Part shown: piece after piece, positions 1,827 through 63,163 of the stretch
How the letters are laid out: every line of letters begins with the position of its first letter
Position numbering within the stretch: the first letter of the stretch is position 1
From: Psilocybe cubensis
Lineage: Eukaryota
Assembly: GCA_017499595.2 (NCBI GenBank)
Contig: CM038998.1
Location: forward strand, 4,278,001 to 4,342,000
Direction: 5' to 3'
DNA: 64,000 bases
Made by a program: the position numbers and the translations under genes
Notes under the pieces: model-generated
Seen by the model: only the letters and a program-made list of their open reading frames with translations
Databases searched by the model: none
Told to the model about the DNA's origin: nothing

Positions 1827-4071
<2,245 letters not shown>

Positions 4072-4211: not shown

Positions 4212-7129
4212 ATGGCGCATCCAGACCTGTTAGAACTTGTCGGCGCGTATCAAAGGTAAACCCACGACCAGGGCTCGACCAAGCTCAATGACGATCTATT
4301 TCTCACGGTCGACCGCCGCTCACATCTTCATTCAAGAAGTGCATTCACAACTCTACGCTCACTGGCTCTCTGCGATCACTGTACGTTCCGCGGTGCCTAA
4401 TAATTACTCGACTACTGGGTTTAACTGCCGCGGTTCTTCCTTAGGGTCTATATATCTTCTCAATTACTTTTTCCCTGCCACAGCTTCTCAAAAGTTATTA
4501 CCGGCGCGGCGTACTTGGGTCGGTGAGTAGAACACGTTCGTTCATGCGCTAGGGTTGAATTATAAAACTGTCTCAGGAACTCACGAGGTCAGATACCCTG
4601 TACCCTGCCGACTGAATAAGCGCTCTATTCCTTCGATGAGCCGCTGGGCAATAAAGCATTCCAAAATAAACGTGGACAGTGCATGTAAAGTGATTATCAT
4701 GACATCTGTCATTGCATTTGAACTGGTGATTCTCCGGATCTGTGCTGCGTAAAACATAAGCAAAACATGCGGCAGAATACATCGACATTTATAACGACAC
4801 TGGAGTGAGACTGGATTGTCCACCGTTTTATAGGAATGGCTGATAAGACAGTTGTAAGTATTTGAGCATATGCGCATACTTGCAGATTTTCACGATGTTT
4901 GTGTAAAGGATATCACAGCTCTTTCATCTTTCAAGTCCGAAGAGGAACCGATGTTGACCACGGGAATATCTACCCCTGGCTGCACCTGGATCTTCACATA
5001 CGAAGTGGAGAAGGAGCAACTTTCAGTCCAATGGGAGAGGAAATCCGCTCAGCAAAGGAACGTAACCCAGTCTTCTAAGGCTACCGTCCAAGTCTTTCTA
5101 AGCAGCGGCCAAACTCACTTTGCCTCATCGTCTCCATACATCGAATATACGGCCTACTTTTTAAATCGAACCGGAGCAGACGTTTTCAAATTCCCTAAAC
5201 CAAGGCGGCTTCGGGGCCGCTGGATTTTCTTCAAGGTTTCTGGGCCTCCTTCGATACTCGGTGTGCGTACGTTTCTACATTTCCAAAATTTTGATATGCT
5301 AACCATTGCCTTGGATTCGGCAGATCGAACCATCAGAGCATCTCAATGAGATCGATGAAGCTATCAAAGAGATGGATGCCTTGCGCATTCTCATAAAGAA
5401 AGCAACCGACGACCATGTTGCAGAAGTCGCTCGTCTCAACAGTTCTTTGTCTCAGGCCCACGATTCGGTCAAAGGCCAGGAGAAAGTAAACGCACGACTT
5501 CTCAAAGAGATAGAGCAGCTGCAGAAGGACCTCGACACTGTAGATGAAGAGTATGATACTCTGCAAGACAAGTTCCGGACTGTCGAGGCGTCTAACAAGA
5601 ATCTGGAGACGGAGAAGACCGGTTTGGAGCAACAGGTCGACAACATCACTGCGATCAAGCAGCAGCTTGACTTGGACAACACCACATTGCAGGACAGGGT
5701 CAAACTTCTCGAAGGCACTGTTGCCGATTTACAGAAACGCGACGAGAACGATAAACGCGAAATTGCCACTCTGAAAGGATCTATCACCAGTCTCGAGACC
5801 AATGTACAGAATCTCGAAACTACCAAGAAGACTCTCGACAAAAAGCTCGCTGCTGCACAAAGACGCAGCGACAGTCTCCAGGCAGATGTCAGCAGCCTTA
5901 CAGAGCTCAAAGAGTCCTTCGAAAATAAAATTTCCGCTCTTACACAAACCAACATCGAGCTCTCAGCTTCCAACATGCTTCTGACTCAGAAGAACGCCGA
6001 ACTCATAGAACAGGTCGATAAACTCGAAGCTGATCGATCTTCTCTCGTCAAAGAAGCCAGAGACGCCAAGGTCAACGCAGAGAACGCGCAGAGACAACTT
6101 CAGAAGGCCAACATGGATGTTGAAACCACTAAATCCAAGTTGGAAGCGGAGATACAACAGGCGTCTGACCTCCAATCGAAGTATACGACGACGACCCTTA
6201 AAATCGAACATCTGGAGAATGATCTTGCAATCATGACCGAGAAACAACGAGACAGCGACGATTGGCGTTCTTCTGCTTGTCAGACCATTGAACAGTTACA
6301 GAAGGAGCTACAAGAGGCAGGCGAGAGGGAACTTAACTACGATCCAAACCGCTTGTACAAGCAACTTGACGAAGAGAAGAAGGGTCGTGCTGCCGATATT
6401 GAAAGCCTTAGTGCCGCCCTCGAGGAGCAAAAGGAACTCAGCGAACAGAAGACATTGCGAATCAGCGATCTTGAATCCGAAGCTGCCGCTCGACTCGCGG
6501 ACATACGGGGCCTGGAAAAGCAAATCGGTGAACATCTTGCCAAAATAGCCACTATGGAAGCCAAAATTTGTCAACAGGCGAACGACCTCGATGAATTCCG
6601 AAGGCAATTAGCTGAAGACCGAGCTGCCAATAACAAGCTTCAAGCGGAATTGAACGACAAGATATCCCAGATTACGGTCCTAGAAAACCAGCAACAGCAT
6701 GATGCCTGGGTGCTTCAGGGCGTCAGAAACGATTTGGCCACCGCCCAAGGCAACTTACAATCCCAACAGAGGATCTCTCAGAACCTTCAGTGTAGCCTTT
6801 ACTCCGAGCAAAATACGAGTTCATCACTCCGCGGCGAAGCTGCGCGTTTGCAAACGGACTACAACTCCCTGTATGCCAACTACACCTCCATGCAGAAAAA
6901 CTTCAAACGGCTCTCCAAAGAATACGATGGACTTAGCGAACGCGCATCACACGAGGATTGCGTGCAGGGAGATGATGTCTTGAGTCTTGTCAGGCATAAC
7001 AATCACAAGCTGGAAGTACTTCGTTGGCAATATAAAAAGGTATTTTCAGAGGGGAGACACATGTACGCTCGGATGCGCGACGGATCGCGTAGTCGTCCAG
7101 GATCGGTCACATCGACCAAGACTTATTAA
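4212..7129 (+). CDS. Long coiled-coil protein of unknown function (5' exons uncertain; main exons ~4885-5262 and 5324-7129)
   Basis: ~600-codon exon of continuous heptad-type E/K/L/Q-rich sequence, preceded by intron gtgcgt..cag (5263-5323) and a beta-rich-looking N-terminal exon; start at 4212 is tentative. Confidence 0.65.
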
Positions 7130-25200: not shown

Positions 25201-27078
25201 CGAATCGAATCGAGAAGCGAGTGCCGTGCATGCATGCGTTAGTTAACCCGCGCCGTCCGCCGTGAGTTGGCCCCCAGCCCCCAGCCATTCTGTTGGGTGG
25301 GTGTGAGACCTGAAAGAGGTGACATCCATATTCGTCCCGTCCCGTCTCCCCATTCCATCCATATCCATTTCCGTCATATCGCTTTTTTTCAAGGGGACCG
25401 GTAAATTTAAATATTCTTTTTCTCTTAATTTTTTTGCGCGATCTATCGAATCCAAATCCGTATCGGTATCCATATTGATAGTGTCCGAGAGCAGACCTGA
25501 CCTGAACCTGTCCATTGCATACATACATACATACGTACATACTTAACTTTCTTACTTATCGCTCCTTTTTTTTTTCTGTCTTTTGCTTGTTGTTGCATAG
25601 AGAGTGGTTTGCTCTATCCTATCCACGCACACGCACATAATTCCGTCCGAGTTCGTTTGGCTGTTCACCACCACACCCACCACCACCACCAACAACTAAC
25701 ATCTATACACGACGCCGACGCACGACGAACGACGCGCTCGTAGGCACATTTGACCACGACCGCACGCACGCATATATACACCGTCGCTATCCATCCTAAT
25801 TGCAGAACACAGACTGGCGCACTTTGACTCCTACCTACCTACCCTACCTACCTGCCTACCTACATTGACGAACGACGGAACGGAACGAGTCAAGGCTAAG
25901 CTGAGACGAGACGAGACGAGACGAGACACCGGGATTAGGACTTGAAAAGACACCTTTGATTCTTGATTCTTGAGACGAAACACGGAACACGGGACTATGG
26001 CGCACACCGCATCTGCAGGTGGCCCGGCGTACGGTGGTATGGGCATGGGCATGAGTATCGGTTTGGGTGTTGGAATGGCGCTGCCGTACACTAGCGGTGC
26101 GAGCTCGAGCTCGAGCTCGAGCTACGCTGTGCATCCTTCGAGTTACGCTTCTGGGTCGGGGTCGGGGTCGAGTTCGAGTGGGAGCGCAAGCTCAAGTGGA
26201 AGCTCGAGTTCGCAGTATAGCGGGAGCTACTCGTCAGCCTCTACATCTACATCTACATCTACATCCACCACCTCCGCCCCCGCCTCCTCATCTTCCTCAC
26301 ACCCCGCCTCCGCGCATACATCATGGCGCACCACCTCCGCCTCCACCTCAAATACAGGTTCAGGTTCAGGTGCAGGTGCAGGTCCAGGGCTAGCGCCCAA
26401 CCCGCCACTCCCGCTTACCCCGCCGATGTCGACGAGCTTCGCGCACCGCGTGGCCGTGGCGTACCATCCTTCGCACTCGCATCCTTCATCACATACGTCT
26501 GGTCCTCAGCAGCAGCAGGCGTCTCATAGTACCCTCCCCACATATTCACACCCACATACGCATACGCATGCCCCTCCGCCTTCAACGACGACGACGACGA
26601 CGACGACGTTACCGCCTATAGCCCACCTCGAGCGGCACCTCCCTCCGCCGCCGCCGCCCCCTCCTACACACTCTACGTCTGCGTCTGCGTCTGGTGCCCC
26701 GCATATGCAGTCGTATTCGCAGTATCATCAAAATTATCAGCCACAGCAGCAGGGTCAGCAGCAGCAGAGTCAGCTGCAGAATTTACAGAATCAACAACAA
26801 CACCAGCAGCAGCCGCAACTGCAGCCGCACCAGAATCAGCAGCATAACCAACAACAACACCAGCAGAATCAGCAACAGCAGCTACAACAACAGCACCAGC
26901 ACCAGCACCAGCAGCAGCAGCAGACTCTGCAAAACCAGCAGAACCAGCAGAACCAGCAGAACCAGACGTATGCGCCGATGAATGCGCCAACCCAGAGCCA
27001 GAGTCAGAGTCAGAGTCAGGGTTTGACGTACCCGAGCACCAGTTTACCACCTCGTAAGTCTTCTTCGTTTTTTTTTTT

Positions 27079-27119
<41 letters not shown>

Positions 27120-30100
27120 GCTGTGTTCTTTTTTTCTTTTGCTTTGCCTTGTCTTTTTTTTCTTTCTTGTACTTGTACTTGTACTGGATTTTTTCAAGTA
27201 CTCGAATTTTTTTTTATCTTGCAAGGTTTTTTTTTTTCTTTTTCTCTTTTTTTCGTCATCTTTTTTTTCATCTTTTTCTTCATCTTTTTGGTGTTTTATT
27301 GATCTGTCTATGCTTTTTTTTTGTTTTTTTTTTGTGCGTATTGCTAACACGTCCTTTGTCATCCAAGCAGTTACTCCGCCAGACGACGTACCCCATGCGC
27401 ACGCTGCGCGCTTGCCTGCGCCTGCGCCTGCACCGGCACCTGCGCCTTCTCAACAACCACCTTCCCGACAACCACAACCACAACAGCCATCCCAACAATC
27501 ACAACCACAACAGCAACAGCGGAGCCAGCAGCAGCAGCAGCAAACTAGGTCGGCTAGGTCGGCTCAGCAGCAGGCGCAGTTACCGCGCGTCGCGTCGGGC
27601 GAAGGGGATGTTTTTTATTCGCATTCGCAGGCGCAGGCTTCGAGTGGTGGGACGTACCAGCAGCAGAATGCGGTGGTGTATCAACAATCGCAACACCAGC
27701 AGCACCAGCAGCATGGGTATCATCATCCCGCGCCGCAGCCTGGACCTGGACCTGGACCTGGACCTGGACCTGGACCTGGACCTGGACCTGTGGGTGAGAT
27801 ACAGGCGCAGGCGCATCAGCATCAGCATTATCAGCATCAACAACAAAATAGCGCGCCGCCTCCGCCGCCGCCGCCGCCGCCCTCTCAGTCCACCCAACAC
27901 CCTCAGCAGCAGCAGCAGCAGTTGCAACCCCATCATCAACCTCAACCCTCGCACCAACCGCCGTCAACTCAGCAGCAGCAGCCACAACCCCAACCCCAGC
28001 ACCAACCCCAACAACATCCGCAACAGTCCATCCAGCCTCAGCCTCAGCCCTCGCACCAACCGCCGTCAGCTCAGCACCAGCAGCAGCAGCAGCCGGTGAT
28101 AATCGACTGGCTGGACGCGTCGCGCACGCGCTCGGGGCGGTTTATAGCTGAGAAGACGTGTGAGATGATATGTTATTTGTGGTTCGCTGCGCCGCCTCCT
28201 GTGCCTGTTGTGACTGCTGTAACTACATCTGGGTCTGGTATGAGCAAGAAGGTGGAGGATAAGAGGGAGGCGGAGGTTTTGGGGGAGGATAAGAGTGCGA
28301 GTGGGAGTGAGGGGAGTAGTGCGAGTGAGGAAGGGATGGATGTTGATGATGATGAGGAGGAGGAGGGGGATGTGGATGGAGAGGATGTGGATGTGGAGGG
28401 AGATATGGAGGATGGGGATGTGGATATGGATGGTATGAGTGGAAGGAGAACGGGAAGTGGCAGAGGGAAAGGAAGAGGGAGGGGGAGGGGGAGGGGAAGA
28501 GGAAGAGGCAACGGTGTAGAGTCGCCTGCGACGTCCGTGTCGTCTGCGGCGTCGTCTTTGCCTAGTATCAAACGCTCGTCGTTACACTCCGCCCACACCA
28601 CCTCCTCATCCACCCAACCCGCCCACATCACCCCCGCCGCCGCCGCCGCCGCCCCCACCCAAGCCCACCCCCCCGCACCACCCGCACGCCCCCCAACAAC
28701 AGCCCCTTCAACCCTGCAACTCGTCGCCACCCCCACCTTCATCCAATTCATGCAAAAGCTGCTCGAAACAACGCAAGTCTCGCAGAGCGTCATTGTGCTG
28801 AGTCTGCATTATATTTATAGGTTGAAGGAGAAGAACCGGTGGACGCCTGCGCAGAGGGGGAGTGAGTTTAGGATTGCGGTTGCTGGGTTGATGATGGGGA
28901 ATAAGTTTTTGGATGAGTGAGTTGGGTTTTTTTTGGTCTCTTTTGCTCTCTCTTTTTTTTTTTTTTTTTGGTGGTTTATTGATAAATGGAATTCGCTAGT
29001 AACACCTACACCAACAAAACATGGTCAGAGGTATCAGGCATCGAGCTGGACGAGATCAACCGCATGGAACGCGAATTTCTCACTGGGGTGGATTTTAACC
29101 TGTACGTGGATAAAGCGACGTATGAAGGGTGGTTGAATCTTTTGAAAGGGCTGGTTTTGGCGAAGGAGAGAGATTGTAGGAGGTGGGGGGCGGTTTCGGG
29201 GTCGGGTGGGGGGAGGAGAGGGGAGAGGGGGGAGAGAGGGAGGGGGGTGGGTGCGAGGTATGGGTATGCGCATGCGCATGGGGAGAGGGAGAGGGGGTAT
29301 GCGAGGGAGAGGGAGAGAGAGTATGGAAGAGAGAGGGAGAGGGAGAGGGAGAGGGGGTATGCGCGCGAGCCGGTGCGCGCGTATACTTCTGCTGCGCTTG
29401 CGAGTGGTAGCGGTAGCAACAGCAACAGCAATGCGAATGCGAATGCGAATGCGGTGGTGGCGAAGCATCCGCCGCCGCCGCCGCCGGGGCCGGCGCAGGG
29501 GTATCATTATGCGCAAGAGTATGGGTACGCGGCGGGTGTAGGTGCGAGTCAGGTGTCGAATGCGAGCTATGGCGCTGGGGCTGGGGTTTACTCCGCCAAC
29601 GCCAACGCCAACGCCCAGTACACTAGCGCTGGTGGCAGCACCAGCAGCAGCAGCAGCAACTACTACAAAATCCCTTATAGCAACAACACCACCTCCTCCA
29701 ACACCACCTCCTCCTCCACCAACACCGCCGCCAACAACAGCGCGAACGGGTGCACCGGATACGGATACGGAAACGGAAACGGATACACGAACGGGGGACG
29801 ACCGACGATGCACCGCGCGCGCTCGAGCTCGCCTACGTTGCGCCGCGCTGTGCCTTCCTCCTCTTCTTTGTCTTCCTCTTCGTCGGGTGCGGGTTTGGGT
29901 TCAGGGTATGCGCCGCCGGTGTTTGGACAGCCTGGTCCTGCGCCTGCGCCTGCTCCTGGTCCTGTGCAGACGACGACGAGTTCGGGTGTGGCCGCGTTCC
30001 ATATCCCGCATGTTCAACCCCAGCCTCAGACCCAGGCGCAAGCGTATGCGGTGTATCCTGGTACAACGACGACGTCCACATCCACGACGGCGTCCATGAT

Positions 30101-30412
30101 GAGCTCAGGATCGCATTCGGCGTACTCGTCGCCTTCGCCTGCGCCTCGGTCTTATGTCTATGGACATCATGGATCATATGCGAGTGGGCTGACGATTAAT
30201 ACGAATACGGCGTCGTTTGGTTCGTCTGCGTCGACGACGTCGTTGTCTGCATTATCTGCAACTGCAGCGCCGACAGTGAACGTTACAAATGGCAATGTAG
30301 TGAATACGACGGCGACGGCGACGGCGTCAGGCGCAGCGAAACGCACGGCAGAAGCTGCGTTCTCGCCTACGAGCGCGGGGTTCGCGCATGTTCCTTCTAA
30401 GAAGGTTGTTGG

Positions 30413-30448
<36 letters not shown>

Positions 30449-33400
30449 CCTACCCCACTCACACGGACAGGGAGTAAGCCCGCTTGATGGGCTCGCGCTC
30501 TCGAGCTTTGAGAGGATGTCGATTGGGAGTGGGGGTGTGTCGCCTTTGATGGGTCAGGTGCATGGTTCTGTTCCTGTGCAGGGCAGTTCGCAAGTTAAGG
30601 GCCCGGCGGTGCGTCGTTCGCAGCAGGCGCAAGTACCTGTCAATGTGAACGCGCTGCCGCAGCTCTCGACGGCGTATTCGTATAATGTTGCGGATGATGA
30701 GCGCAGGGGGCGTGGGCAGGTTAGTCTCTTTCTTCTTCTTCACATTTTTTTTGGATGTGGACATTCGCTAACCATCTCTGTTCTACACTCTACACTACAC
30801 CCCCGAAAAAACAAAAACAAATACAAATACAGCCGCTCTACTTCTACGCACTCGCATGCTCGCCCGTTAAGCAGCAGGAGTACGAGTATGGGTATGCGAG
30901 CCATGTGCATTCGGCGTGTAATTCTGCGGCGCCGTCGCCTACCCCTGCGTCTGCGTCTGCGGGGGCTGGGGAGGTGAGGCAGGATAGTATGCTTTCGGAG
31001 GAGCAGGAGCAGGCGTATGCGGATGCTGAGGAGAGGGAGCGTGAGAGGGAGCGTGAGAGGGAAAGGATGAGAGAGAGGGAGTATGAGAGGGAGTATGAGA
31101 GGGAGAGAGATTTGGATAGAGAGCGTGAGCGCGAGGAGTATGAGCATGAGAGGGAGAGGGAGAGGGAGAGGGAGAGGGAGAGGCGCGCACGGGAGCGCGA
31201 GGAGGCTGCGCTGGAAGAAGCTGAAGCGCGTCGCGTGCAGTATGCACAGGAGCATAATCAGTACGGGTCGCACTCTCACAGTCACAGCCACACCCCCACC
31301 CACGCCCACCACACACATAACCACTCGCATTCGCACTCGCACTCGCATACGCACGGACACACACACGGACACGGACACACGCACGGACACGGACACTCGT
31401 ACGCGCACACGCAGCGCAAGGCGCGTTTGCGGTATCACCACCCGGCACCGTATACCGCTGCGTATTCGTGGGCTTCGTATGCGGATATGAACGCGCCGCC
31501 GCCGCCGCCTGCGCCTGTGTATGTTTCGTCGGCGGCGGTGTCGCCTGTTGGTGGGGTGCTTGTGCATCATCATCATCAGCAGCAGCAGCATCAGCAAGGA
31601 CAGCAGCAGCAGCAAGGACAAGCGGTGGGCCCGCTGCCGCATTTCAGAGATGATGTGTGGGCGCGCCCGCCTGCGCCTGCGAGTTCTTATGTGGACGTGG
31701 ACGTGGAGGAGGAGATGGAAGCTGAAGCTGAGTCGTTGCGCGGCGATAACGATAATGAGAGCGAGAGCGAGGGCTCTTCCTCTTCTTCCTCTTCCTCTGA
31801 CGATGGCGATCGGGATGAGGATGAGGATGGCGATGAGGGTGAGGACGAGGACGAGGAGATGGAGTATGATGGATCGCCCGTGACGATTTTACGGCGGTTC
31901 CCTTCTTCCTCTGCCAAGGGCCAGACGCAGACGCAGTTGATGAAAGCCAAGACCAAGACCAAGACAAAGACAAAGACGAAGACGCTCAACACGCAAGCGT
32001 CCGTATCGTCCATCTCGTCCACTGCGACTGTCACACCCGCCTCGGCGTCGGCGTCGGCGGGGATGTATAGACCGCGCACGCCTCCGCCTACATCTTCGTT
32101 ATCCTCAATATCCTCATCCTCCTCGTCCTCCTCATCGTTGCCGCCCCCGCCCCCGCCGTCGTCGTCGTCAACATCGTCGTCGTACCATCGACACAGCCAC
32201 AGCCACAGCCACAGCCACAGCTACGCGCAGCACGGCCACGTCGAAGCGGCGCCCTTTGCGAATGCGGGTCCGCCTGGTGTGAATGTTGCGTTTACGCCTG
32301 GTGGGGGGTGTGCGGTTTATGCTGCCCCTCCACCGCCTCCTCTTCCTCTTCCTCATCATCATCATCATCATCATTCGGTGGCTGCTGCGCATGGTGGTGT
32401 TGGTGTTGGTGTTGGGCATCCGAGTTCGAGTTCGGGTTTGACGGCGAACTATGCTGCGAGCAGTAGTGGTAGTGGTGCTGGTGGTGGTGGTGGTGCTGGG
32501 TATGCGCCTGCGAGCGGGACAGGGTCGGGATATGTGTATGGTTCGACGTATGCGTCTGGGTCTGGCGCTGGGTCTACGTACAACAACGCGTACAGCAGCA
32601 GCGGCACCGGCGGCGGCGGAGGAGGAGGAGGGTATGGATACGGGTACGGCTACGGCTACGGCTACGCAACGCCTCCATCGACATCATCCGCACATCCGTC
32701 CTCTGTGCCTGGGTCTGTGTCCGCGTCCGCATCTAACAACACTCTAAGCTCCAGTGTGAGTGTGAGTGCGAATTCGACGCCGTATACCTGTCCAGGCTCG
32801 GGTGCGGGTGCGGGTACGGGGTATTATGGTACCACGCAGTCGCAGTCGCAGTATTCGTCGCCTGTGTCGTATAGTACGTTTAGTGGGGCGTCGCCTCCTG
32901 CGCCTGTTCGTGCGCCGCCTACGCCTGTTCGTGCGCCGCCTGCGCCTGCGCCTGTTCGTGCGCCGCCGCATGCTTCGGAGCCGGAGGCGTATGGGTATCA
33001 GCAGGGGTATTCGACTCAGACTCAGAGCCAGAGTCAGGGTCAGCATGCGTATGCTTCGCACTCGCACTCGCACTCGCAGTATTCGTCGCAGTCGCAGTAT
33101 TCGTCGCCGCAGCGCGTTTATGATGTCAGAGTATGAGGGGTTGATGTTATGGGTTTTCATGTTTTCATGTTGTTGACGATGATGAAGGTTATTGAAGATG
33201 AAGATTGTTGATTATTGATGATGATGAAGATGAAGATGAATGAGCACAGTACCAGCACAGAACAGACTATCTCTTTTTTCTTTTCGTTTTTGCGTTTTTA
33301 CGTTTTTACTTATTCGTTTTTTTTTTTTTTTTGGTTCGGTTCGGTTCAACGATGATACCACATCCACATCCATCCACGTCCACATCCACGTCCACGTCCA

Positions 33401-50641: not shown

Positions 50642-53600
50642 TTAGACGATACCTAGCTGCCTTGCCTCTTCCCATTCTTTGGGGTACATTTTCTGGGCCG
50701 CAGCGGGGAACAGGCTCAATCTCGCATATCCACTGCGAGTCAAAGGATCCTTAATGGACATGAGGGCCTGAACCTTAGGATTTGGAGCTACATGAACTTT
50801 AGCCATGGCTGGGTTGTCAAACTGAGGTAGAGGGAGGATGGGCTTTTCGAGTTTTGTGGTGAGCACATACGGAATAGTGTATCTGATAACCTTTCGTCAG
50901 GGACGTTTCATTGAGTTACAAGGTCAGACATACCGGTCTTGATCGATCTTGAGTGTATTGACACGATGGGTTGTGGCCACTAGCTTTCCGCCAGTGAGGC
51001 GCATAAATTGCATCCCTGTTCAGAAGATACTGTTGACTAGATGGAACTGGTGCTAGACTGATTCATCACGTACCGACATTACACACTACTCCTCCTTCAA
51101 CCATTGGAATGTCGATCCACTTTCCGCTGTGATTTTGGACTTGAAGTCCAGGACGTGATTGAATTAAACAAGTGAGGAACGTTGAAGGGTCTCGGTGCTC
51201 GTGCATTCCATTTACAAATCCTTCGCGCTCTGAAGCTTTCATCTCAGGAGTAAGAGCAAGGTAATGCCAGATGGCACAGTTGAACTCCGTCTCTGAGGGG
51301 AAATAATCGCTGATCACTGATGCTGGGACATCCAGAAGCCGTGCAATATGCTCGTTCAGCTCCAAGTTCAGGATACGATAACGTTCAAAAAGCGTTTCAA
51401 TAGTCTTTCGGAATCCAGGGAGATCCGCTGCTGGTGGCCACTGGTTTGGACCTAGTATGTGCTTAATAACTATATGATTGGATGTACGGTTAGATCGTAC
51501 CTTCGTGGATTCGAAGCCAGAAGGGAACATCTGGGTCGATGTGAGCAGGTCTTTCGGCCCCAAAGCGGTATGCCTCAGCATATGCCTGATATCATTTATT
51601 AGCGTCTATCGATACAATAAATGGTAACTAGATTACCTTGTGAGGGCCTTCGATTGTATCCCCTCGGAAGTGGCCGCGAAGGGAAGCGGAATGCTCAGTT
51701 CCAATGGCACTCTTCCACTCCGCGGGCTTGTTGAAAAATTGAGCGACCAGATCGAAGACTTCATCTTGGAAGGATTGTTCGAACCCAGGAACATTGACAA
51801 AGATCCCAAATCCAACATCCTCTAGAGCAAATTTTAACTGTTTGTAATACTCTGAAGGATTCGATTTGGCCAGGGAGAAGTCGATCGTTGGGACAGCATC
51901 GAAATCTTGCTTGGGGGATATGGTAGGAGGAACCGGTGGGGACTGTAGGGCTTCAGCACGGTGAATAGCAGCCCTCATCTTCGAAGCAAAGGATTCGACG
52001 TGCTCCTCGGAGATCATGGTGTAGTGCTCGCCGTCGACATCGATCATCTCGAAATGTTTCCCAGAGTACTCTTTCCATTTAGAAAGTCGATCACGTTTGT
52101 ATTCCTCTCTGGTGCCCATAGAAGGGAGAGGAATGGCACAAAATACAGTAGTCAACGCGCCTTCAATCCGACCCGAAGGCAGGTACGTTCGTCCTACACA
52201 GAATAAGTTGGTGATATTGTTCTCTGTTTGTTATAGGAATGACACGCACCAGTGTACGATACATCGTACGCAACATTGACCCAACGATGGAAGTAGTCGA
52301 TAGGCATGTTGAGTTCCGCAAGCCTGGATTGGTTGCAATGCGCATATGTCCATTCGATAAGCTCCCTCGAGTTTGAGGGCTCTACATCAGAGTCTCCACC
52401 AGGATTTTGCAGAAGAAGAGCAGTTTTGAAGTGTTCAAAATCTTCTGACCGAATCAATGCCAAGAACATGGAAAGATTTAATCTGAGAAAGGAGGTACGC
52501 TGTGTTAAAAGAAGCTAATTGACCATGAATATGAAGGCTCACAATGTCTCCACCCATATCAATTCTTTTACTCGGAACTGAATGAAAGGTGGCAGGTTTA
52601 GCACGCCCAGCCAAGGAACCACCTTACCCTTCTTCTCGAGTAGTTTTCCTATCTCGAAAGCAATTCCCGCGCCAAAGCTGTATCCAGCTATATAGTATGG
52701 ACCGGTGGGGTTGTTTTTCAAAATGGCATCCGTATATATATCGACCATTTCTTGCATAGACGAGGGAGGTGTTTCGCCGGCTTCAAAGCCTCTGGCACGC
52801 AGAGTATAAACCGGTCGATCGTCATTCAGAACACGGGCAAGATTAATGAAGATGAGAACTTCGCCAACACCAGGGTGGACAAGATATAGAGGTGGTTTAG
52901 ATCCTTGTGGATTGAAGCATAGGAGTGGGTTGTAGGACGCCTGATGATCGTTCCCTTTGTTGACCAGCTCTTGGACGTAGGCCGCAATATCGGATACAAC
53001 TGGACGTTGTAGCAGCTCGATGGTAGGAATGTTTACAATTCCGAAATGGTCCTGAAGGAACGTTTTCAACCGGATAAGGTGCATAGATGACGCGCCCATG
53101 TCGAAGATGTTCAGAGACAGATCGATAGATGCCAAGTCAATCTCGAAAATAACGGATACTCCTTCACAAACAACCTGCTCCAACGGCGACCGGGGGGCAT
53201 TGGAGGATGCGCGAGCCTGTTGCCGCCGAGCAGAAGCCTCGCCAATGAACTTTTCGATGACATTAAACTTTCCTTCTCCATAGGCCTTCGCTAGCGCGAT
53301 ACGTGAAACCTTTCCCAGGGCAGTCTTGACGAAGAAAACTCGGGGAAGAGGAAGGACCACATGGGGAGCCTGTGAACAAAAGGCCGCACAGACATTTCGT
53401 ATGCGTTGACTTGTATTGAGCACGTTCTCCAATTGGTCGTCAGTCAATGAGTTCAAAGTAGCCTCCTCGATTGCCACGTCGGTATGCTGGTAGAACACAG
53501 TGTATGTTTCGGTATCAGCACCTTCAAGTCGCAATGCACACACAAAAACAAGTGAACTTTCAACCCCAGAAATGTTGGAGTCTGCTATGTAGTGCTCAAT

Positions 53601-55112
53601 GTCAACGTTGGGATGTTTGACGCCGTTGACGTTGATGACGTCCTTGTGTCTGCCAAGCATGTGAACATTACCATCGTCGTCAACCAATGCAAGGTCTCCA
53701 GTAACAAACCAGCCATCCGAAGTGAAAGAGTCATTTGTAGCGGTCTCGTTCGCATAGTATTGGGAGAATATAGACGGTCCAGACATTTGCAACTGTCCAA
53801 TGGCACCTGGAGGACAAGGTAGCGATGTTTGGGGATCCATAATGCGGACCCTTCCTCCATCGTGAGAAGTACCAATCGAAAGATAGGTCAAAGTCCCATA
53901 GTCCGCGACGGCAGGTCGTATTGGCAAGTTGTTATATATGATTCCTGCCTATGGTCCCAGTCAGGGGTCGTCGAAGGTTGAGAAGAAAAAACCACGAACC
54001 CCCGTTTCAGTCATTCCAAACGCGGCCCTTACCGTTGTCCGGGAACTGCCGAAGCGTTCAATGATATCACTGAACTCAACGGCTGTCGTAACAGGGTTCG
54101 CTTCACCACCTGTAATCAAAACTCTAAGCGCCGATAGGTCCAAAGATGCCGAAGAAAGAGAAGCATCCCGACAAATTTGGGCCAGCAGAAAGTTTGGGCT
54201 GAACGTATGGGTAATTTTGTACTTAGAACACCAATCAAGCAAATTTCGTGGCTTGCGAATTATCGAAGATGGTGAAGCCTGGTATTGGCTGAGCAAATAC
54301 AAGGTTGGTTTAATACCGTGCAAAATATCACAGCCAAGGACTTACGATGCGCCGGCCCAGATAGCATGAAGATGTGTTTCTGTGACATTTGCCACATGGT
54401 CGAAATTGATCCAATTGAGGAAGCTGTCGCTTTCCCGGGTACCATGTTTCTGTGTTTTTCCTCTTACGGCTGACAGTAATACTGAGTGTGGTAGGACCAC
54501 TCCTTTAGAGTTTCCCGTAGATCCTGACGTCAGCATAATGGCAACTGTCTCATCTGTCGAGGCAACACGCGAAGGATAAATCGCGTCATCCAGGGATGGG
54601 TCGAATCTTAATGTCGAGTTGGTAATTTGCTGGACGTCGACGATTTTAAACTCTGGAACCAGCTTCTTAACGATTAAGAGTGTTGCAGAGTCAGATATGA
54701 AGGTAGGTTTGTGGAAAAGGTTCTGAAGGTGATTCAGAAGTAGAGCTTGTCGAGTTTCGTCGGGGTGAAAAGGCGGAAGAGGACATATAGGAATACCAGC
54801 TGACACAGTACATTTTAGCTTCTAAGTGACTCAAAGTAAAAAAAAAACGTTCTAACCGAAGGCACATCCCCAAAAGAAGAGTATATGTGTTCTCTGGTCA
54901 TCGAATTTGGTTACGACTATGTTTTTACCGCCACTCTGAAGGCCTGACGCGAGAAGTGCTTTGGCAATTTGTTTCGCAGAGTCCGCAAGGTCGACAAATG
55001 TCAAGGTACTTGTTATGTCTCCAGAATCATCAAGGAAGTGAATAGGATTGTTCGAAGCCCCCGCACGTAAGGTGAGAAGTTCTGTAATTGTCGTCGGTTC
55101 AGTGGTATGCAT
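50642..55112 (-). CDS. Quinone-synthetase-type NRPS-like enzyme A-T-TE fused to a C-terminal Fe(II)/2-oxoglutarate dioxygenase domain (PpaA1-like architecture)
   Basis: A: LTSGSTGNSKGV, WINFDHVA, FSPNFL, GGEAN, AFGMTET, GWFVTGDLA, KTALGK; T: FDMGASSMHLIRLK; TE: LVHPGVGEVLIF, GYSFG, LNLPP, GEHYTM; dioxygenase: VPTIDFS..DVGFG, GPNQWP, HRD, GLQVQN, THRV. Confidence 0.92.
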
Positions 55113-56718: not shown

Positions 56719-58355
56719 ATGTCGCCTATCGATCTTGCCAACGAACTTCAAACTCTCGTCGCTTCTACGTACTCTGGGGACGTCACCGATCCTTTCAAGT
56801 TGTACAAGGCAAGGCACAGCATTTCAGACCTCTGTCTATCGCTTTTGCGCGCCGTTCAAGGCCCCGAAGAATACACAGCAATCTTAGCAGGTAAACAATA
56901 GAATCTACTCTGGAAGTGCGGCTCCAATGCTGATATGCATCCCTGTCGATGTCTAGAATCCTGCCAAGAGTCATCTGCGTTAAACGTCGTCGCGTCTTTA
57001 GGCGTCGCAGATCACATTGCCGAGTCTCCGAATGGAGAACTGACCCTGCAGGAACTGAGCGAGAAAGTCAAGGCAGACGAGAAATACCTCAGTACTATCT
57101 AATTTTGCTTCAATTGCGCTTGTAGCACTTATTTTTATCACCTCAGGTGTCGTTCTTAGCTCTCTCGTTTATCACGGATACTTCAAAGAGGTCGGCGGCT
57201 TCGGTTCCCAAGTATACGCCAACAATGACTTCAGTAGCTTGCTCCTGTCGGAAGAAACAAATGCCAAAGGTGGCAAGAGCATGAAGGACGCCGTCGGCCT
57301 ATCGTGAGTATTCGCATTTAACAACACATTTTACAGATCTAATAAGAGTTCAGGGCCGATGATGGAGCCAAAGCGACCACCCGTTTGTTAGACGCTGCAA
57401 CGGGTAAAGCTAAAGGCGAAGCAAAGACTGCGGCAAATATTGCTTTCGACTTCAGCGAAAGCCTCTTCCAATGGATGGCCTCTCCCGGTAACGAATGGCG
57501 AGGAAAGAGGACTGCCAAAGCTATGGTTCAACTTCACGGCATGGCCAACGGAGGAATTGGCGAAGGTAGAGCAAAATATATTACCGATGATTAGCCTCTA
57601 ATCAACATCCAGATTACCCATGGGAGAAACTCGCAACACCGATCATCGATATCGGAGGCGGTATTGGTTCATTCCAGGGAATGCTCCTCGCACTTCCCAA
57701 AAACAAGGAACTTACCTTCACGATCTTTGATATCGAAAAAACTGTAGAACATGCCAAAAAGGTGCGTGTAAAGCGACTTTCACCTGGACCTTTCTGATTT
57801 CAGCTTTGTGAAAGGTATGGGCGGGTAAACCACAATGGATGCAAGACAAAGTGTCCTTTATTGCCGGAGATTTCATGAAGTCGTCACCCAATGACAGTAA
57901 AATTCCTACTCCGGCACAAGGAGCAGGGACCTATGTTATTCGCCACGTTCTTCACGACTGGGACGATGCACAGGTACATGACTACAATAGTGTGCCGAAG
58001 AAACCCATCTAAACTAACATCTCAGGTGGTCACCATTCTTAAACACGTACGCAACGCGATGCTAGGGTCTCCCGCATCTACACCACCAAAGCTTCTGCTT
58101 GTAGAGATGATGCTCAATGAGACTTCATCCCGATTTACTCGAACTACTTCCTTGCAATTGCTATCTCTGAACGGGGGTATAACACGTACTGAAGGCAAGA
58201 TAAAACAGTTGTCTGCATCTTTACGCAGGGTGGCTGACATTTCATTATCAGTTCAATTCCGAAGGCTCATCAAGGAAGCTGGTTTTACCGTCGACAGTGT
58301 TACAGAAGTCAGGGGTGTGGACTTAGTGGTAGAGTTGAGTCCAGCATCGTTGTAA
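56719..58355 (+). CDS. SAM-dependent O-methyltransferase (Methyltransf_2/COMT-like), multi-exon
   Basis: MSPIDLANEL..., wHTH-like LGVADHIAESPNGELTLQELSEKV, IIDIGGGIG, FIAGDFM, RHVLHDWDDAQ|VVTILKHVRNAM, LLLVEM, RTE|VQFRRLIKEAGF. Confidence 0.9.
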
Positions 58356-58741: not shown

Positions 58742-60849
<2,108 letters not shown>

Positions 60850-61864
60850 TTCACTAGTGAAAGAGGGTAAGAAATGGGTACTTAGAACTTTCAAAAGATT
60901 TTGGAAACCATCTATAAGGATTCATGCCTACCTTTGGATCCGAGATGAGTTGGAATGTATGGTTCAATCTTTGATTTGAGGTCAATATCAAAAGGAGCAG
61001 TATACAGCTATGACTGAGGAATTCTAACCACGATAAAATTAGAGGGCTATATAGCCATCGGTCTCCTTGTCGCTGTAGCCACTACGCATATCATTGTTAC
61101 CCAATTATGATGTACCAAGCAAAACTTTCTGAGAAGTCGAGATTGAACGTGTGAGCGCTTCAGTATGGGTTGCAGTAACGCCCACTAGATTTTGTGAACT
61201 CGGGTACCTGCTATAGATATCTCCACATCCAGATAAACGTTGCAATGAAGATATCAGCGACTATCGTAACGCCATTGTGATCGCAGCTGATACTTGGACA
61301 CATGTTTTTCCAATGAATCAGGAACTTTGCCCTGACGCTGGACCCAGGCGGTAAAAAATAGAAAAGGCCTATTCGACATGCGATAGATGGTTGTATGACC
61401 ACACGCGATTTAATATCGAGAACCTTAATAGGCAATACTTTCAGAAATCAATTCTTGAGACATGTCATTTATAGACACATCATGTTCTCATAGGCGCACG
61501 GTGTCAACCTGCTGTCGAGGAAGAAGTACATACAGTGGGAACGTTTAGCTATCAGGCGCGTTTCACTACCGTTCGGATCGTGCGGGCACCGTATTTGAGC
61601 CCACACCTCAACTCACTAAATTCAGTACATAGTGCAAATCTTCCCTGATATAGATTAGGACCTTCTTCCGCCTTGGTGATGATCTGATTGCACCAGAAGA
61701 AGGGACTACTATCTTCAAGAATAAATTCATTAGTCAGTGATTGCATACTCTCTTCTCGGATAGAAATTTAGAATCGCGACGGGCTCTGTAGCTATTGTGG
61801 GATTGCAGGTGGTAGGGCGTCTGTTATAAGCCTCGAGCGCCCCGTTTGTCTCCCCAGGATCAGC

Positions 61865-63163
61865 ATGTCGTCCACCAATGCAACCGTGCCCCAGCCAAAC
61901 TTTGCGCAAATCCCGCTTCCTCCAGGGTTTACGCTTGAACAGTTCCAAGCCCTCCAAGGGACAATTGGTGAGTATGCCTTGTCATGCCGGCTATGAATTA
62001 ACTCGCTCATAACTCCTTTAGTTAATGTAGCAATTGCTATGGCTGTCGCAGTTGCGATAGTGGTATGGGACTTGTAAGAACGTTTCGTCTGACATATAGG
62101 ACAGCGATGAGCTTACATTTCGTACTCAAGCCTGTCTATGATTCCTACGGAACGTGAACTTTTCCGTGAGAAAGACAGTAAGCTATGGAGAGCTCCTCCA
62201 ACATGGGCGTAAGTGTTCTCAGCACATGTTATTACTTTGAGTTTAAACTAATTAATATGGGTAGATTCATGGTTCTTCGCTATTCTGGGGTTTTCGCTCT
62301 TGTTCCGGGACTTTTTTTCACATCCCTGCAAAATCAGCACTGTCAAGTGGCTGCTTCCTTAGGCGAAGTTGGAGTCGTTCTCGTCACCGGATCAGCTGGG
62401 CTTATTTTTGCTTATCGTGTGTTCGCCATCTGGCGCTACAACAAGACTGTGATGGTTCTCGTATCGGTCTTGTATGTTTTCAATGTTGCCTGTTGGGTAC
62501 GTCTCGTTATCAATTGAAAATTTCCAATGACTGACTGGAGGTACAGATCGCAGTTGGTTCACAGCTCCGAGCGTCCCAGGGTCCTCCGACACCTTTTGGC
62601 TCTAACTGCAAGTTACACCCAGTCCCTGATTGGGATCCCCTGCCATTTGCTTCATCCGTGTTATTCGATACCACCGTGCTGCTCCTTACAATAATCAAGA
62701 CCAGAGAAGACAAAATCAAGAGCTCTGCCATTGGAAATCAAATATTGCGGGACAATATCATTTACTTCGTCATTCTTTCCGTCACCAACATCGTAGTTTT
62801 GGTCATAAACTGTCTTGGCCCTAAATTTGACAACATCAAGCCTGTCACTCTTCCCTATCCTACCCTGATGACTACTGCTATGGGTACCCGGTATGTTTTA
62901 GGGGTACCATCAATTATCCCCGTTTATAAGCTAATATCTGGCGTAATAGCGTTTACTTGAATTTGAGGCTGTATAACAAGAGACGCCACGAGACGTCGAC
63001 TCTTCCTCAGGTCACTTCGGGCGACACCATGCGGTTCAAGACAAACGACGTACCAATACCTCTCAACTCCATGAGGAGTGCTACCATGGTAGTTCAGTCT
63101 ACCCATGTGCAAAAGGACTGGGACGATACCAAACTACACACTGTCACCACTGAGAGCCTGTGA
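61865..63163 (+). CDS. Multi-pass membrane protein of the Agaricomycete DUF6533/GPCR-like type
   Basis: AVAIVVWD, FMVLRY, LIFAYRVFAIWRYNK, LFDTTVLLLTIIK, ILRDNIIYFVIL, TR|VYLNLR, all typical of this fungal multi-TM family. Confidence 0.7.

Follow-up and report, generated by a model that had tools for sequence, protein, structure and literature searches.

The window analysed here is a stretch of 64,000 nucleotides of the Psilocybe cubensis genome (GenBank assembly GCA_017499595.2, contig CM038998.1, positions 4,278,001 to 4,342,000), and all coordinates are positions within it. On its minus strand, at 50642..55112, lies a gene encoding an adenylation-thiolation-thioesterase (A-T-TE) quinone synthetase fused to an Fe(II)/2-oxoglutarate (2OG)-dependent dioxygenase (D) domain. 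The spliced model is 4471 bp long and consists of 10 exons, with a coding sequence of 3981 nt and a product of 1326 amino acid residues; the ATG at 55112 and the TAA at 50644-50642 form the two ends of the feature, and the nine introns are 49-60 nt in size and GT..AG throughout. Gene length, intron number and protein size equal the values given for ppaA2 by Seibold et al. 2023 (4471 bp, nine introns, 1326 residues; PMC10316625), and the gene was therefore assigned to ppaA2, an identification that we regard as virtually certain.

The spliced protein is identical to P. cubensis KAH9487375.1 / XP_047755000.1 (P0001), which carries the name 'putative NRPS-like protein biosynthetic cluster' (NRPS, non-ribosomal peptide synthetase). 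Its 90% identity cluster includes WJZ49102.1, 'polyporic acid synthase-like enzyme [Psilocybe cubensis]', with 1323 of 1326 residues the same and the substitutions Y338H, T402A and S972A (window to WJZ49102.1). The paralogue ppaA1 is described as 4432 bp long with eight introns and 1333 encoded residues, and both genes as A-T-TE-D (PMC10316625). PpaA1 corresponds to P0002 (1333 residues, KAH9487379.1; cluster-mate WJZ49097.1, 'polyporic acid synthetase'), the gene for which is on the same 4.68-Mb contig, four accession numbers from ppaA2. A tblastn search of the 64-kb window with the model found ppaA2 itself and no second ppaA copy, which places ppaA1 beyond the window. The first-pass annotation had named PpaA1 as a precedent for the architecture; this was right, the window gene being the paralogue from the same paper, so that both gene and architecture are already in print and represent no new kind of system. 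The gene, its exons and its domains are as follows.

50642..55112, minus strand: ppaA2, whole gene, A-T-TE-D (spliced model; protein identical to P0001 / KAH9487375.1)
54857..55112, minus strand: exon 1 (spliced model; a GT..AG intron at 54800-54856 adjoins)
54346..54799, minus strand: exon 2, with the A3 motif SGSTGNSKG and FDHVA (model, Pfam, motif alignment)
54000..54288, minus strand: exon 3, with I295, code position 5, aligned to PpaA1 V302 (model, alignment)
52543..53948, minus strand: exon 4, end of the A domain, T domain (S621) and start of TE (GYSFG, S757) (model, Pfam, alignment)
52250..52482, minus strand: exon 5, TE (model; contig from run X10 without both flanking introns)
51637..52193, minus strand: exon 6, end of TE (GEHYTM, H936), Pro-rich linker and start of the dioxygenase (model, Pfam; X10 record 1 unbroken over 51636-52192)
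51501..51585, minus strand: exon 7 (model, X10 contig)
51074..51451, minus strand: exon 8, dioxygenase core with Y1157, H1179 (51195-51197) and D1181 (51189-51191) (model, Pfam, alignment)
50934..51015, minus strand: exon 9, H1236 (50966-50968) and the first two bases of the R1247 codon (model)
50642..50882, minus strand: exon 10, rest of the R1247 codon, T1249, conserved C-terminal tail and TAA (model, alignment)
53223..55112, minus strand: adenylation domain, residues 1-575, introns included (Pfam)
52974..53174, minus strand: thiolation (PP-binding) domain, residues 592-658 (Pfam)
51958..52892, minus strand: thioesterase domain, residues 686-958, introns included (Pfam)
50645..51909, minus strand: Fe(II)/2OG dioxygenase (D) domain, residues 975-1326, introns included (Pfam DIOX_N and 2OG-FeII_Oxy, AlphaFold2, Foldseek)
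53934..53936, minus strand: Y338 codon (His in the published PpaA2 entry)

Five Pfam domains were found in the whole protein, all above the curated cut-offs (AMP-binding 33-398, PP-binding 592-658, Thioesterase from 686, DIOX_N 980-1100 and 2OG-FeII_Oxy 1173-1254), and the same five were recovered exon by exon. Model, Pfam and motifs thereby agree with the first-pass description of an A-T-TE quinone synthetase joined to an Fe(II)/2OG domain with intact ligands. Exon 6 by itself holds the end of TE, the Pro-rich linker (residues 959-974) and the dioxygenase over its first 90 residues, and the fusion is therefore independent of any splice prediction; the open frame given earlier for this junction (51628-52155) is the same frame as that of exon 6 (52193-51637).

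Contigs of four public sequencing runs were aligned to ppaA2 at an 80% threshold. Introns are retained in the two near-complete DNA runs, X6 and X7, while X12 (four short pieces) was not used. From run X10, record 1 (1981 nt) reaches from 109 nt past the stop codon, in the 3' untranslated region, to 52838 in exon 4; it spans exons 4-10, with introns 4-9 precisely removed. The label of X10 as RNA was only a guess, and its transcript origin is read from the clean removal of six introns that are kept in X6 and X7. Since this spliced contig crosses both TE and D, the two are on one RNA. That the fusion is an artefact of the gene model is ruled out, the junction being inside one exon and crossed by the spliced contig. 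The remaining X10 pieces show many differences and other joints, and would most simply represent a paralogue matched at the 80% threshold.

The synthetase portion has every core motif of PpaA1, HapA and CorA in the motif alignment. FDHVA, GYSFG, LNLPP and GEH, picked out in the first-pass annotation, are all present and are common to the polyporic acid synthetases HapA and CorA. S621 of the carrier domain aligns to PpaA1 S628, and S757 of GYSFG and H936 of GEHYTM are in place in the thioesterase. The A-domain code combines FDHVA (Val at position 1, alpha-keto-acid type) with I295 at position 5, aligned to PpaA1 V302. Position 5 is reported as Val or Ile in polyporic acid synthetases, which use phenylpyruvate, and as Asn in atromentin synthetases (PMC10316625). 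PpaA2 departs from the alignment at four columns that are invariant in the other sequences, all conservatively, and the active PpaA1 departs at three. In the A-T-TE tree, which holds no clade-II (atromentin) sequence, PpaA2 groups with PpaA1, HapA and CorA; the split into clade I and clade II is taken from PMC10316625. By their sequence the alpha-keto-acid type A domain, carrier and thioesterase together would form a clade-I basidiomycete quinone synthetase.

One residue of the A domain may bear on the published record. Position 338, within GAGxIY just after GMTE, is Tyr in the window allele and in 57 of 59 homologues, and His in WJZ49102.1. If that deposit is the clone that was expressed, His338 might be a cause of the null result published for ppaA2. 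The GAGxIY stretch itself ends in IYN in Psilocybe, Termitomyces T112 and Leucoagaricus (P0001, P0002, P0003, P0039) and in IYD in the other clade-I enzymes. NFDHVANVTE and TGGEANPV are found in Psilocybe and Termitomyces T112 where others have AFDHVACVSE and SGGEAVP (P0039 did not form part of these two comparisons). The set may represent a substrate-pocket variant within clade I.

The D domain retains the HxD...H triad, RxS/T and the Tyr of the HY motif. The motifs named in the first-pass annotation, H1179-R-D1181, H1236 (in THRV) and R1247-Y-T1249, were all located, the metal ligands aligning to PpaA1 H1186/D1188/H1243. In this enzyme class, RxS/T and the Tyr of the HY motif serve to bind the C5-carboxylate of 2OG. 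An alignment of D with 89 homologues, the most distant at about 25% identity, has no invariant columns other than G1007, G1053, H1179, D1181, H1236 and R1247. Within the family at 50% identity or above, the residues are kept in 89/90 (H1179), 90/92 (D1181), 66/66 (H1236), 68/70 (R1247) and 86/86 (Y1157) sequences, with Thr or Ser at position 1249 in 59/64. The exceptions are mostly metagenome or Logan fragments, one being the gapped full-length model P0017, and the two at R1247 may stem from the splitting of its codon by intron 9. P1182 and V1253 are conserved within the family, as is the C-terminal tail.

The AlphaFold2 model of D (predicted local distance difference test score, pLDDT, 94.8; predicted template modelling score, pTM, 0.92) has a double-stranded beta-helix fold. 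The listed Foldseek matches, which include 9ovh, 5c3p, 6xjj, 9l50 and 9ig5, have a probability of 1.00 and E values from 3e-23 to 1e-17. From the residues and the predicted fold we infer that D is a folded oxygenase able to bind metal and 2OG.

D is the most conserved of the four domains. Mean pairwise identity among 23 tetra-domain proteins is 0.72 for D (0.79 for its core), 0.63 for TE, 0.57 for A, 0.51 for T and 0.35 for the linker, and 37% of the D columns are invariant compared with 15% of those of A. These 23 are from the 26 homologues of at least 1200 residues; P0014, P0017 and P0022, in which D is truncated or gapped, were left out, as were the partial or tri-domain rows P0027, P0033, P0040, P0043, P0064 and P0070.

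Differences between strains follow the same trend. The 40 differences listed, the best-supported subset of 204, include 40 of the 43 of the main X6 contig; 17 are intronic, 20 synonymous and three non-synonymous (T402A, R841K and S972A). Among the listed differences between these related strains, D has 14 synonymous and no non-synonymous changes, for which, with 240 synonymous and 816 non-synonymous sites, the binomial probability under neutrality is about 1e-9. Introns 6-8 have 16 of the 17 intron differences, in 158 nt. Together with the highest conservation of any domain, this bears out the selection on the dioxygenase domain that had been proposed for examination, and relaxed selection was not seen. 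That D is under functional constraint is, in our judgement, highly probable.

The differences are concentrated over the D half of the gene, at 51029-51997, where synonymous divergence is about 5.8%, compared with 0.9% over the remainder of the gene, and 10 differences fall within the 49 nt of intron 7. The region looks like a divergent haplotype block without amino-acid change. Gene conversion from ppaA1 as the source of this haplotype is ruled out, there being no amino-acid change though PpaA1 differs at 16% of D residues.

A search of longer proteins with exon 6 gave 75 matches, HapA and CorA included. Of the 26 with at least 1200 residues, all contain DIOX_N and 25 contain 2OG-FeII_Oxy. These long matches are from Psilocybe, Termitomyces, Cristinia, Punctularia, Gloeophyllum, Antrodiella, Hypsizygus, Collybia, Mycena, Lyophyllum and several relatives, Trametes punicea, Cubamyces and Hermanssonia. 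Fused D is present in the Agaricales, Corticiales, Gloeophyllales and Auriculariales, the last represented by Exidia, which has both a fused copy (P0190, confirmed by Pfam) and a free one; a fifth order we take to be the Polyporales. None of these other tetra-domain genera is mentioned in the main text of PMC10316625.

Free-standing, full-length D proteins of 348-376 residues, with 60-69% identity, were found by a search of shorter proteins with the D region. Their sources are Exidia, Trametes polyzona, T. versicolor, Phanerochaete carnosa (two), Cubamyces menziesii and one metagenome, and each has its own Met a few residues ahead of the DF..VP.IDF start and shares the conserved C-terminal tail. 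As a rule, submissions of this kind number their accessions in the order of the genes. A tri-domain synthetase (KAI0635108) and a free dioxygenase (KAI0635109) have consecutive accessions in Trametes polyzona, the corresponding pair in Cubamyces menziesii ends in ..134 and ..129, the locus tags of synthetase and dioxygenase in Trametes cubensis, g3957 and g3955, are two apart, and Exidia has the fused KZW02259 and the free KZW02256. The gene from Hermanssonia is split over g1235 and g1236. A further protein, P0046 of Leucocoprinus birnbaumii (541 residues), consists of a protein-kinase fragment and a complete D-type dioxygenase 80% identical to that of PpaA2, and probably represents a different synthetase locus whose gene model was merged or mis-split.

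Fused and free forms interleave in the FastTree phylogeny of the D domains, and the groups mirror those of the A-T-TE tree. In the latter, rooted with one ascomycete sequence, tetra-domain proteins are found on all major branches, and the tri-domain HapA, CorA and Trametes enzymes are nested among them. The topology hints that the fusion, or at least the partnership of D with the synthetase, is old. We infer that D belongs to one orthologous dioxygenase family whose members are either part of clade-I synthetases or encoded next to them, in at least five orders of the Agaricomycetes.

An argument made in PMC10316625 against a role of D in the formation of phlebiopsins is that Phlebiopsis gigantea encodes canonical A-T-TE enzymes. 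The P. gigantea protein P0033 (1080 residues) continues through the linker and about 100 D residues (aligned to ppaA2 930-1110), and leaves the family at GSHK, which is exactly the boundary of exon 6 and intron 6 in PpaA2, with unrelated residues thereafter. P0033 looks like a gene model that was read into an intron, and the argument therefore needs checking; contrary to it, the P. gigantea gene is probably a four-domain one.

Beside ppaA2, towards the end of the window, are two genes for putative tailoring enzymes.

56719..58352, plus strand: O-methyltransferase, several exons, approximate ends (Dimerisation and Methyltransf_2 matches on separate exons; open reading frames)
58745..60790, minus strand: flavin adenine dinucleotide (FAD)-dependent, phenol-hydroxylase-like monooxygenase, 553 residues, approximate 5' end (Pfam; P0330 = KAH9487377.1)

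The monooxygenase KAH9487377.1 carries the phenol-hydroxylase C-terminal domain. The P. cubensis accessions run from ppaA2 (..375) through the monooxygenase (..377) to ppaA1 (..379), and from this order the likely arrangement is ppaA2, O-methyltransferase, monooxygenase, one more gene and then ppaA1 just beyond 64 kb. At about 61800-63000 (plus strand) there are open frames with long hydrophobic stretches and no Pfam match; this looks like a gene for a multi-pass membrane protein, probably the one that separates the monooxygenase from ppaA1. The synthetase model of T. cubensis (P0183) has an O-methyltransferase merged into it, which matches that of the window at 38-42% identity. The third-best homologue of the monooxygenase (48%) is from Termitomyces T112 and lies four accession numbers from a tetra-domain synthetase. 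As a general feature, clustering of the monooxygenase is unsupported, since among the listed homologues it is on the same contig as a synthetase only in Termitomyces T112.

Beyond these three cluster genes, Pfam searches of the 150 and 147 stop-to-stop open reading frames of the window gave few matches. Exons of a class I Glu/Gln tRNA synthetase (tRNA-synt_1c and anticodon-binding matches) are present at about 1900-3500 (minus strand), and an open frame of 608 residues at 5303-7126 (plus strand) has weak coiled-coil-type Pfam matches only. The region at about 26000-33200 has a G+C content of 55-59%, compared with about 45% elsewhere, and overlapping long open frames on both strands, with almost no Pfam matches apart from a single short Cyclin match at 28986-30974.

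Expression of PpaA1 in Aspergillus niger and Aspergillus nidulans is reported to give polyporic acid, and both ppaA1 and ppaA2 to be transcribed in P. cubensis, as detected by quantitative reverse-transcription PCR (PMC10316625). The authors describe D as catalytically inactive and PpaA1 as 'unique', and state in the discussion that the function of D needs further study (PMC10316625). A literature search found no paper on this D domain beyond PMC10316625.

The A-T-TE part of PpaA2 would load two phenylpyruvates and join them by Claisen/Dieckmann condensation to polyporic acid, a chemistry that is assigned to PpaA2 because its paralogue PpaA1 is 77-90% identical per domain and because code position 5 is aliphatic. 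D is reported not to be needed for the formation of polyporic acid by PpaA1 (PMC10316625), and would most likely act after the product is released. It would then be no dead appendage but a folded oxygenase under strong purifying selection, competent for metal and 2OG, that may hydroxylate or oxidatively rearrange either polyporic acid or a derivative formed from it by the neighbouring FAD monooxygenase and O-methyltransferase. The product of D may have escaped notice either because Aspergillus hosts convert polyporic acid themselves or because partner enzymes were missing. On the sequence evidence we lean towards D being a catalytic tailoring enzyme of a terphenylquinone pathway, while any single specific reaction is doubtful. 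A methylated or hydroxylated quinone as the substrate, as put forward in the first-pass annotation, would be in line with the neighbouring O-methyltransferase and monooxygenase, its only support, which is shared in part with T. cubensis and Termitomyces sp. T112.

Several observations weigh against a tailoring role. PpaA1 with D1188A, with H1243A, with the triple change H1186A/D1188A/H1243A or with D deleted still gives polyporic acid and the same phlebiopsins; D attached to CorA causes no change; and Aspergillus controls fed polyporic acid also form phlebiopsins (all PMC10316625). Mutants, deletion, CorA fusion and fed controls being alike, no product has been tied to D. When ppaA2 itself was expressed in A. 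niger and A. nidulans, no product was obtained, and no polyporic acid was found in P. cubensis, although the fungus converted polyporic acid when fed with it (PMC10316625). The identity of D to its solved relatives is too low for a reaction or substrate to be transferred from them, conservation indicates constraint and does not show catalysis, and the 14 synonymous changes in D share one haplotype and come from a list of 40 of 204 differences. In the other fungi, that the genes are neighbours is deduced from the order of accessions and from gene models, some of which may have been split or merged; the 'free' dioxygenase model of T. cubensis begins with a remnant of TE. The listed monooxygenase homologues of Hypsizygus, Gloeophyllum, Mycena filopes and M. 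sanguinolenta are on contigs that differ in length from that of the synthetase.

The published reading, that D is a catalytically inactive leftover kept at no cost or for the folding or stability of the synthetase, accounts directly for the unchanged product of the PpaA1 mutants and deletion and for the lack of effect in CorA. It is also in keeping with the presence in PpaA1 of P1189 and V1260 in place of the aromatic substrate-binding residues of T7H (thymine-7-hydroxylase) and TropC (PMC10316625). Decay of the domain does occur: P0043 of Agaricus bisporus has Tyr at both His ligand positions and a long branch. A free rider should drift, yet D is the most conserved domain and its listed strain differences are all synonymous. 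Its Fe and 2OG ligands are kept in nearly all family members, which a structural role would not require, and P1182 and V1253 are conserved across the family, which points to a pocket that is different rather than ruined. A stabilising role is further at odds with the full activity of PpaA1 without D (PMC10316625), and free-standing orthologues at 60-69% identity are left unexplained. We therefore consider an inactive D unlikely. To the same degree improbable is a D that is functional outside quinone tailoring, acting on another substrate (a protein or an unrelated metabolite) or sensing oxygen, 2OG or iron and thereby adjusting the synthetase or its partners. Any 2OG-dependent activity would accord with the constraint and the intact cofactor residues, and polyporic acid offers no C-H bond for hydroxylation on its central ring, which favours such a role. 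The same can be said of the lack of a pathway product linked to D in PMC10316625. A shared pathway, however, is what the repeated coupling with clade-I synthetases in five orders and the matching trees predict, and a regulatory D is opposed by the unchanged output of the synthetase, at least in Aspergillus, on mutation or removal of D (PMC10316625).

It has also been raised in PMC10316625 that the entire ppaA2 gene may be a duplicate of ppaA1 that has no function, in which case its D would be uninformative. The absence of a product in both Aspergillus hosts and the position of ppaA1 four accession numbers away on the same contig fit this view. PpaA2 does not resemble a dying copy, however, because its motifs are kept, synonymous outnumber non-synonymous differences by 20 to 3 among those listed over the whole gene, and its transcript is spliced. 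The frame is open over 10 exons with all catalytic motifs present, the four conservative deviations at invariant columns compare with three in the active PpaA1, and transcription detected by quantitative reverse-transcription PCR (PMC10316625) is joined by the correctly spliced contig. His338 of the expressed allele, if that is WJZ49102.1, offers another cause of the null result. A dead ppaA2 is accordingly the explanation to which we give least credence. With D as a tailoring enzyme, the published null results and the sequence constraint are compatible should its substrate be an intermediate that arises later or is decorated differently, or should the host mask its action. A fuller scenario is more tentative, and we would put it forward as a possibility that is rather less probable than not: the four-domain form would be ancestral and the commonest among basidiomycete clade-I synthetases; D, whether fused or next door, would be a conserved second enzyme that converts polyporic acid, or a hydroxylated or O-methylated derivative, to a product class not assigned to any gene; the 'inactive' verdict would reflect the Aspergillus background and missing partners; and the null result with PpaA2 would be due to His338.

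The sequence record is thus at variance with the literature: a domain called inactive and unique to PpaA1 is the best conserved of the four, is under purifying selection and is linked to clade-I synthetases in five orders. Pulvinic acids, thelephoric acids and related compounds arise by pathways that start from terphenylquinone pigments, and if D is active it would represent a widespread step of terphenylquinone metabolism that is still without an assigned enzyme.

Precedent for the kinds of tailoring steps suggested by the neighbouring genes is found in ascomycetes, where polyporic acid is modified by a flavin monooxygenase (AsMO6277), an O-methyltransferase and an oxygen-dependent ring-opening enzyme (PMC12105029). 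In the allantofuranone (alf) and ascocorynin pathways polyporic acid is made by an A-T-TE enzyme, and the kinds of enzymes resemble the neighbours in the window (PMC12105029). The likeness does not extend to a 2OG enzyme: AlfB is described as an extradiol enzyme that cleaves aromatic rings and not as a 2OG oxygenase, which rules it out as a homologue of D, and none of the alf or ascocorynin enzymes described there is fused to the synthetase (PMC12105029). By analogy, these pathways are a precedent for the kinds of steps and not for the 2OG enzyme.

D itself and its nearest solved relatives, the ancestral ethylene-forming enzyme 9ovh, thymine-7-hydroxylase 5c3p, TropC 6xjj, SpoC 9l50, TraH 9ig3 and HIS1/HSL1 (23-28% identity, or 19-28% in the Foldseek and sequence searches that place D beside them), have in common the double-stranded beta-helix of the IPNS/DOXC type, HxD...H, RxS/T and the HY motif. 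The D family differs from them in its own pocket residues, P1182 and V1253, and in its own C-terminal tail.

Among the synthetases, PpaA2 shares FDHVA, GGEA, GMTE/GMSE, the K of A10, NLPP, GYSFG and GEHYTM with HapA1/HapA2 of Hapalopilus rutilans and CorA of Terana caerulea, with the Ser motif of the carrier domain as GASS / GTSS / GVTS in the comparison of PpaA2, HapA and CorA. HapA1/HapA2 and CorA are without D, ending about 20-30 residues past the TE His, and nest among tetra-domain proteins in the A-T-TE tree. PpaA1 has the same four-domain layout with identities of 0.77 (A), 0.79 (T), 0.90 (TE) and 0.84 (D), and ligand positions that match with an offset of 7; it has Val at code position 5 where PpaA2 has Ile, and makes polyporic acid whereas PpaA2 gave no product in the published test (PMC10316625). 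The PpaA2 deposit (GenBank OR105898 / WJZ49102.1, strain FSU12407) is the same gene as that of the window, with the same layout and intron count and the three substitutions given above.

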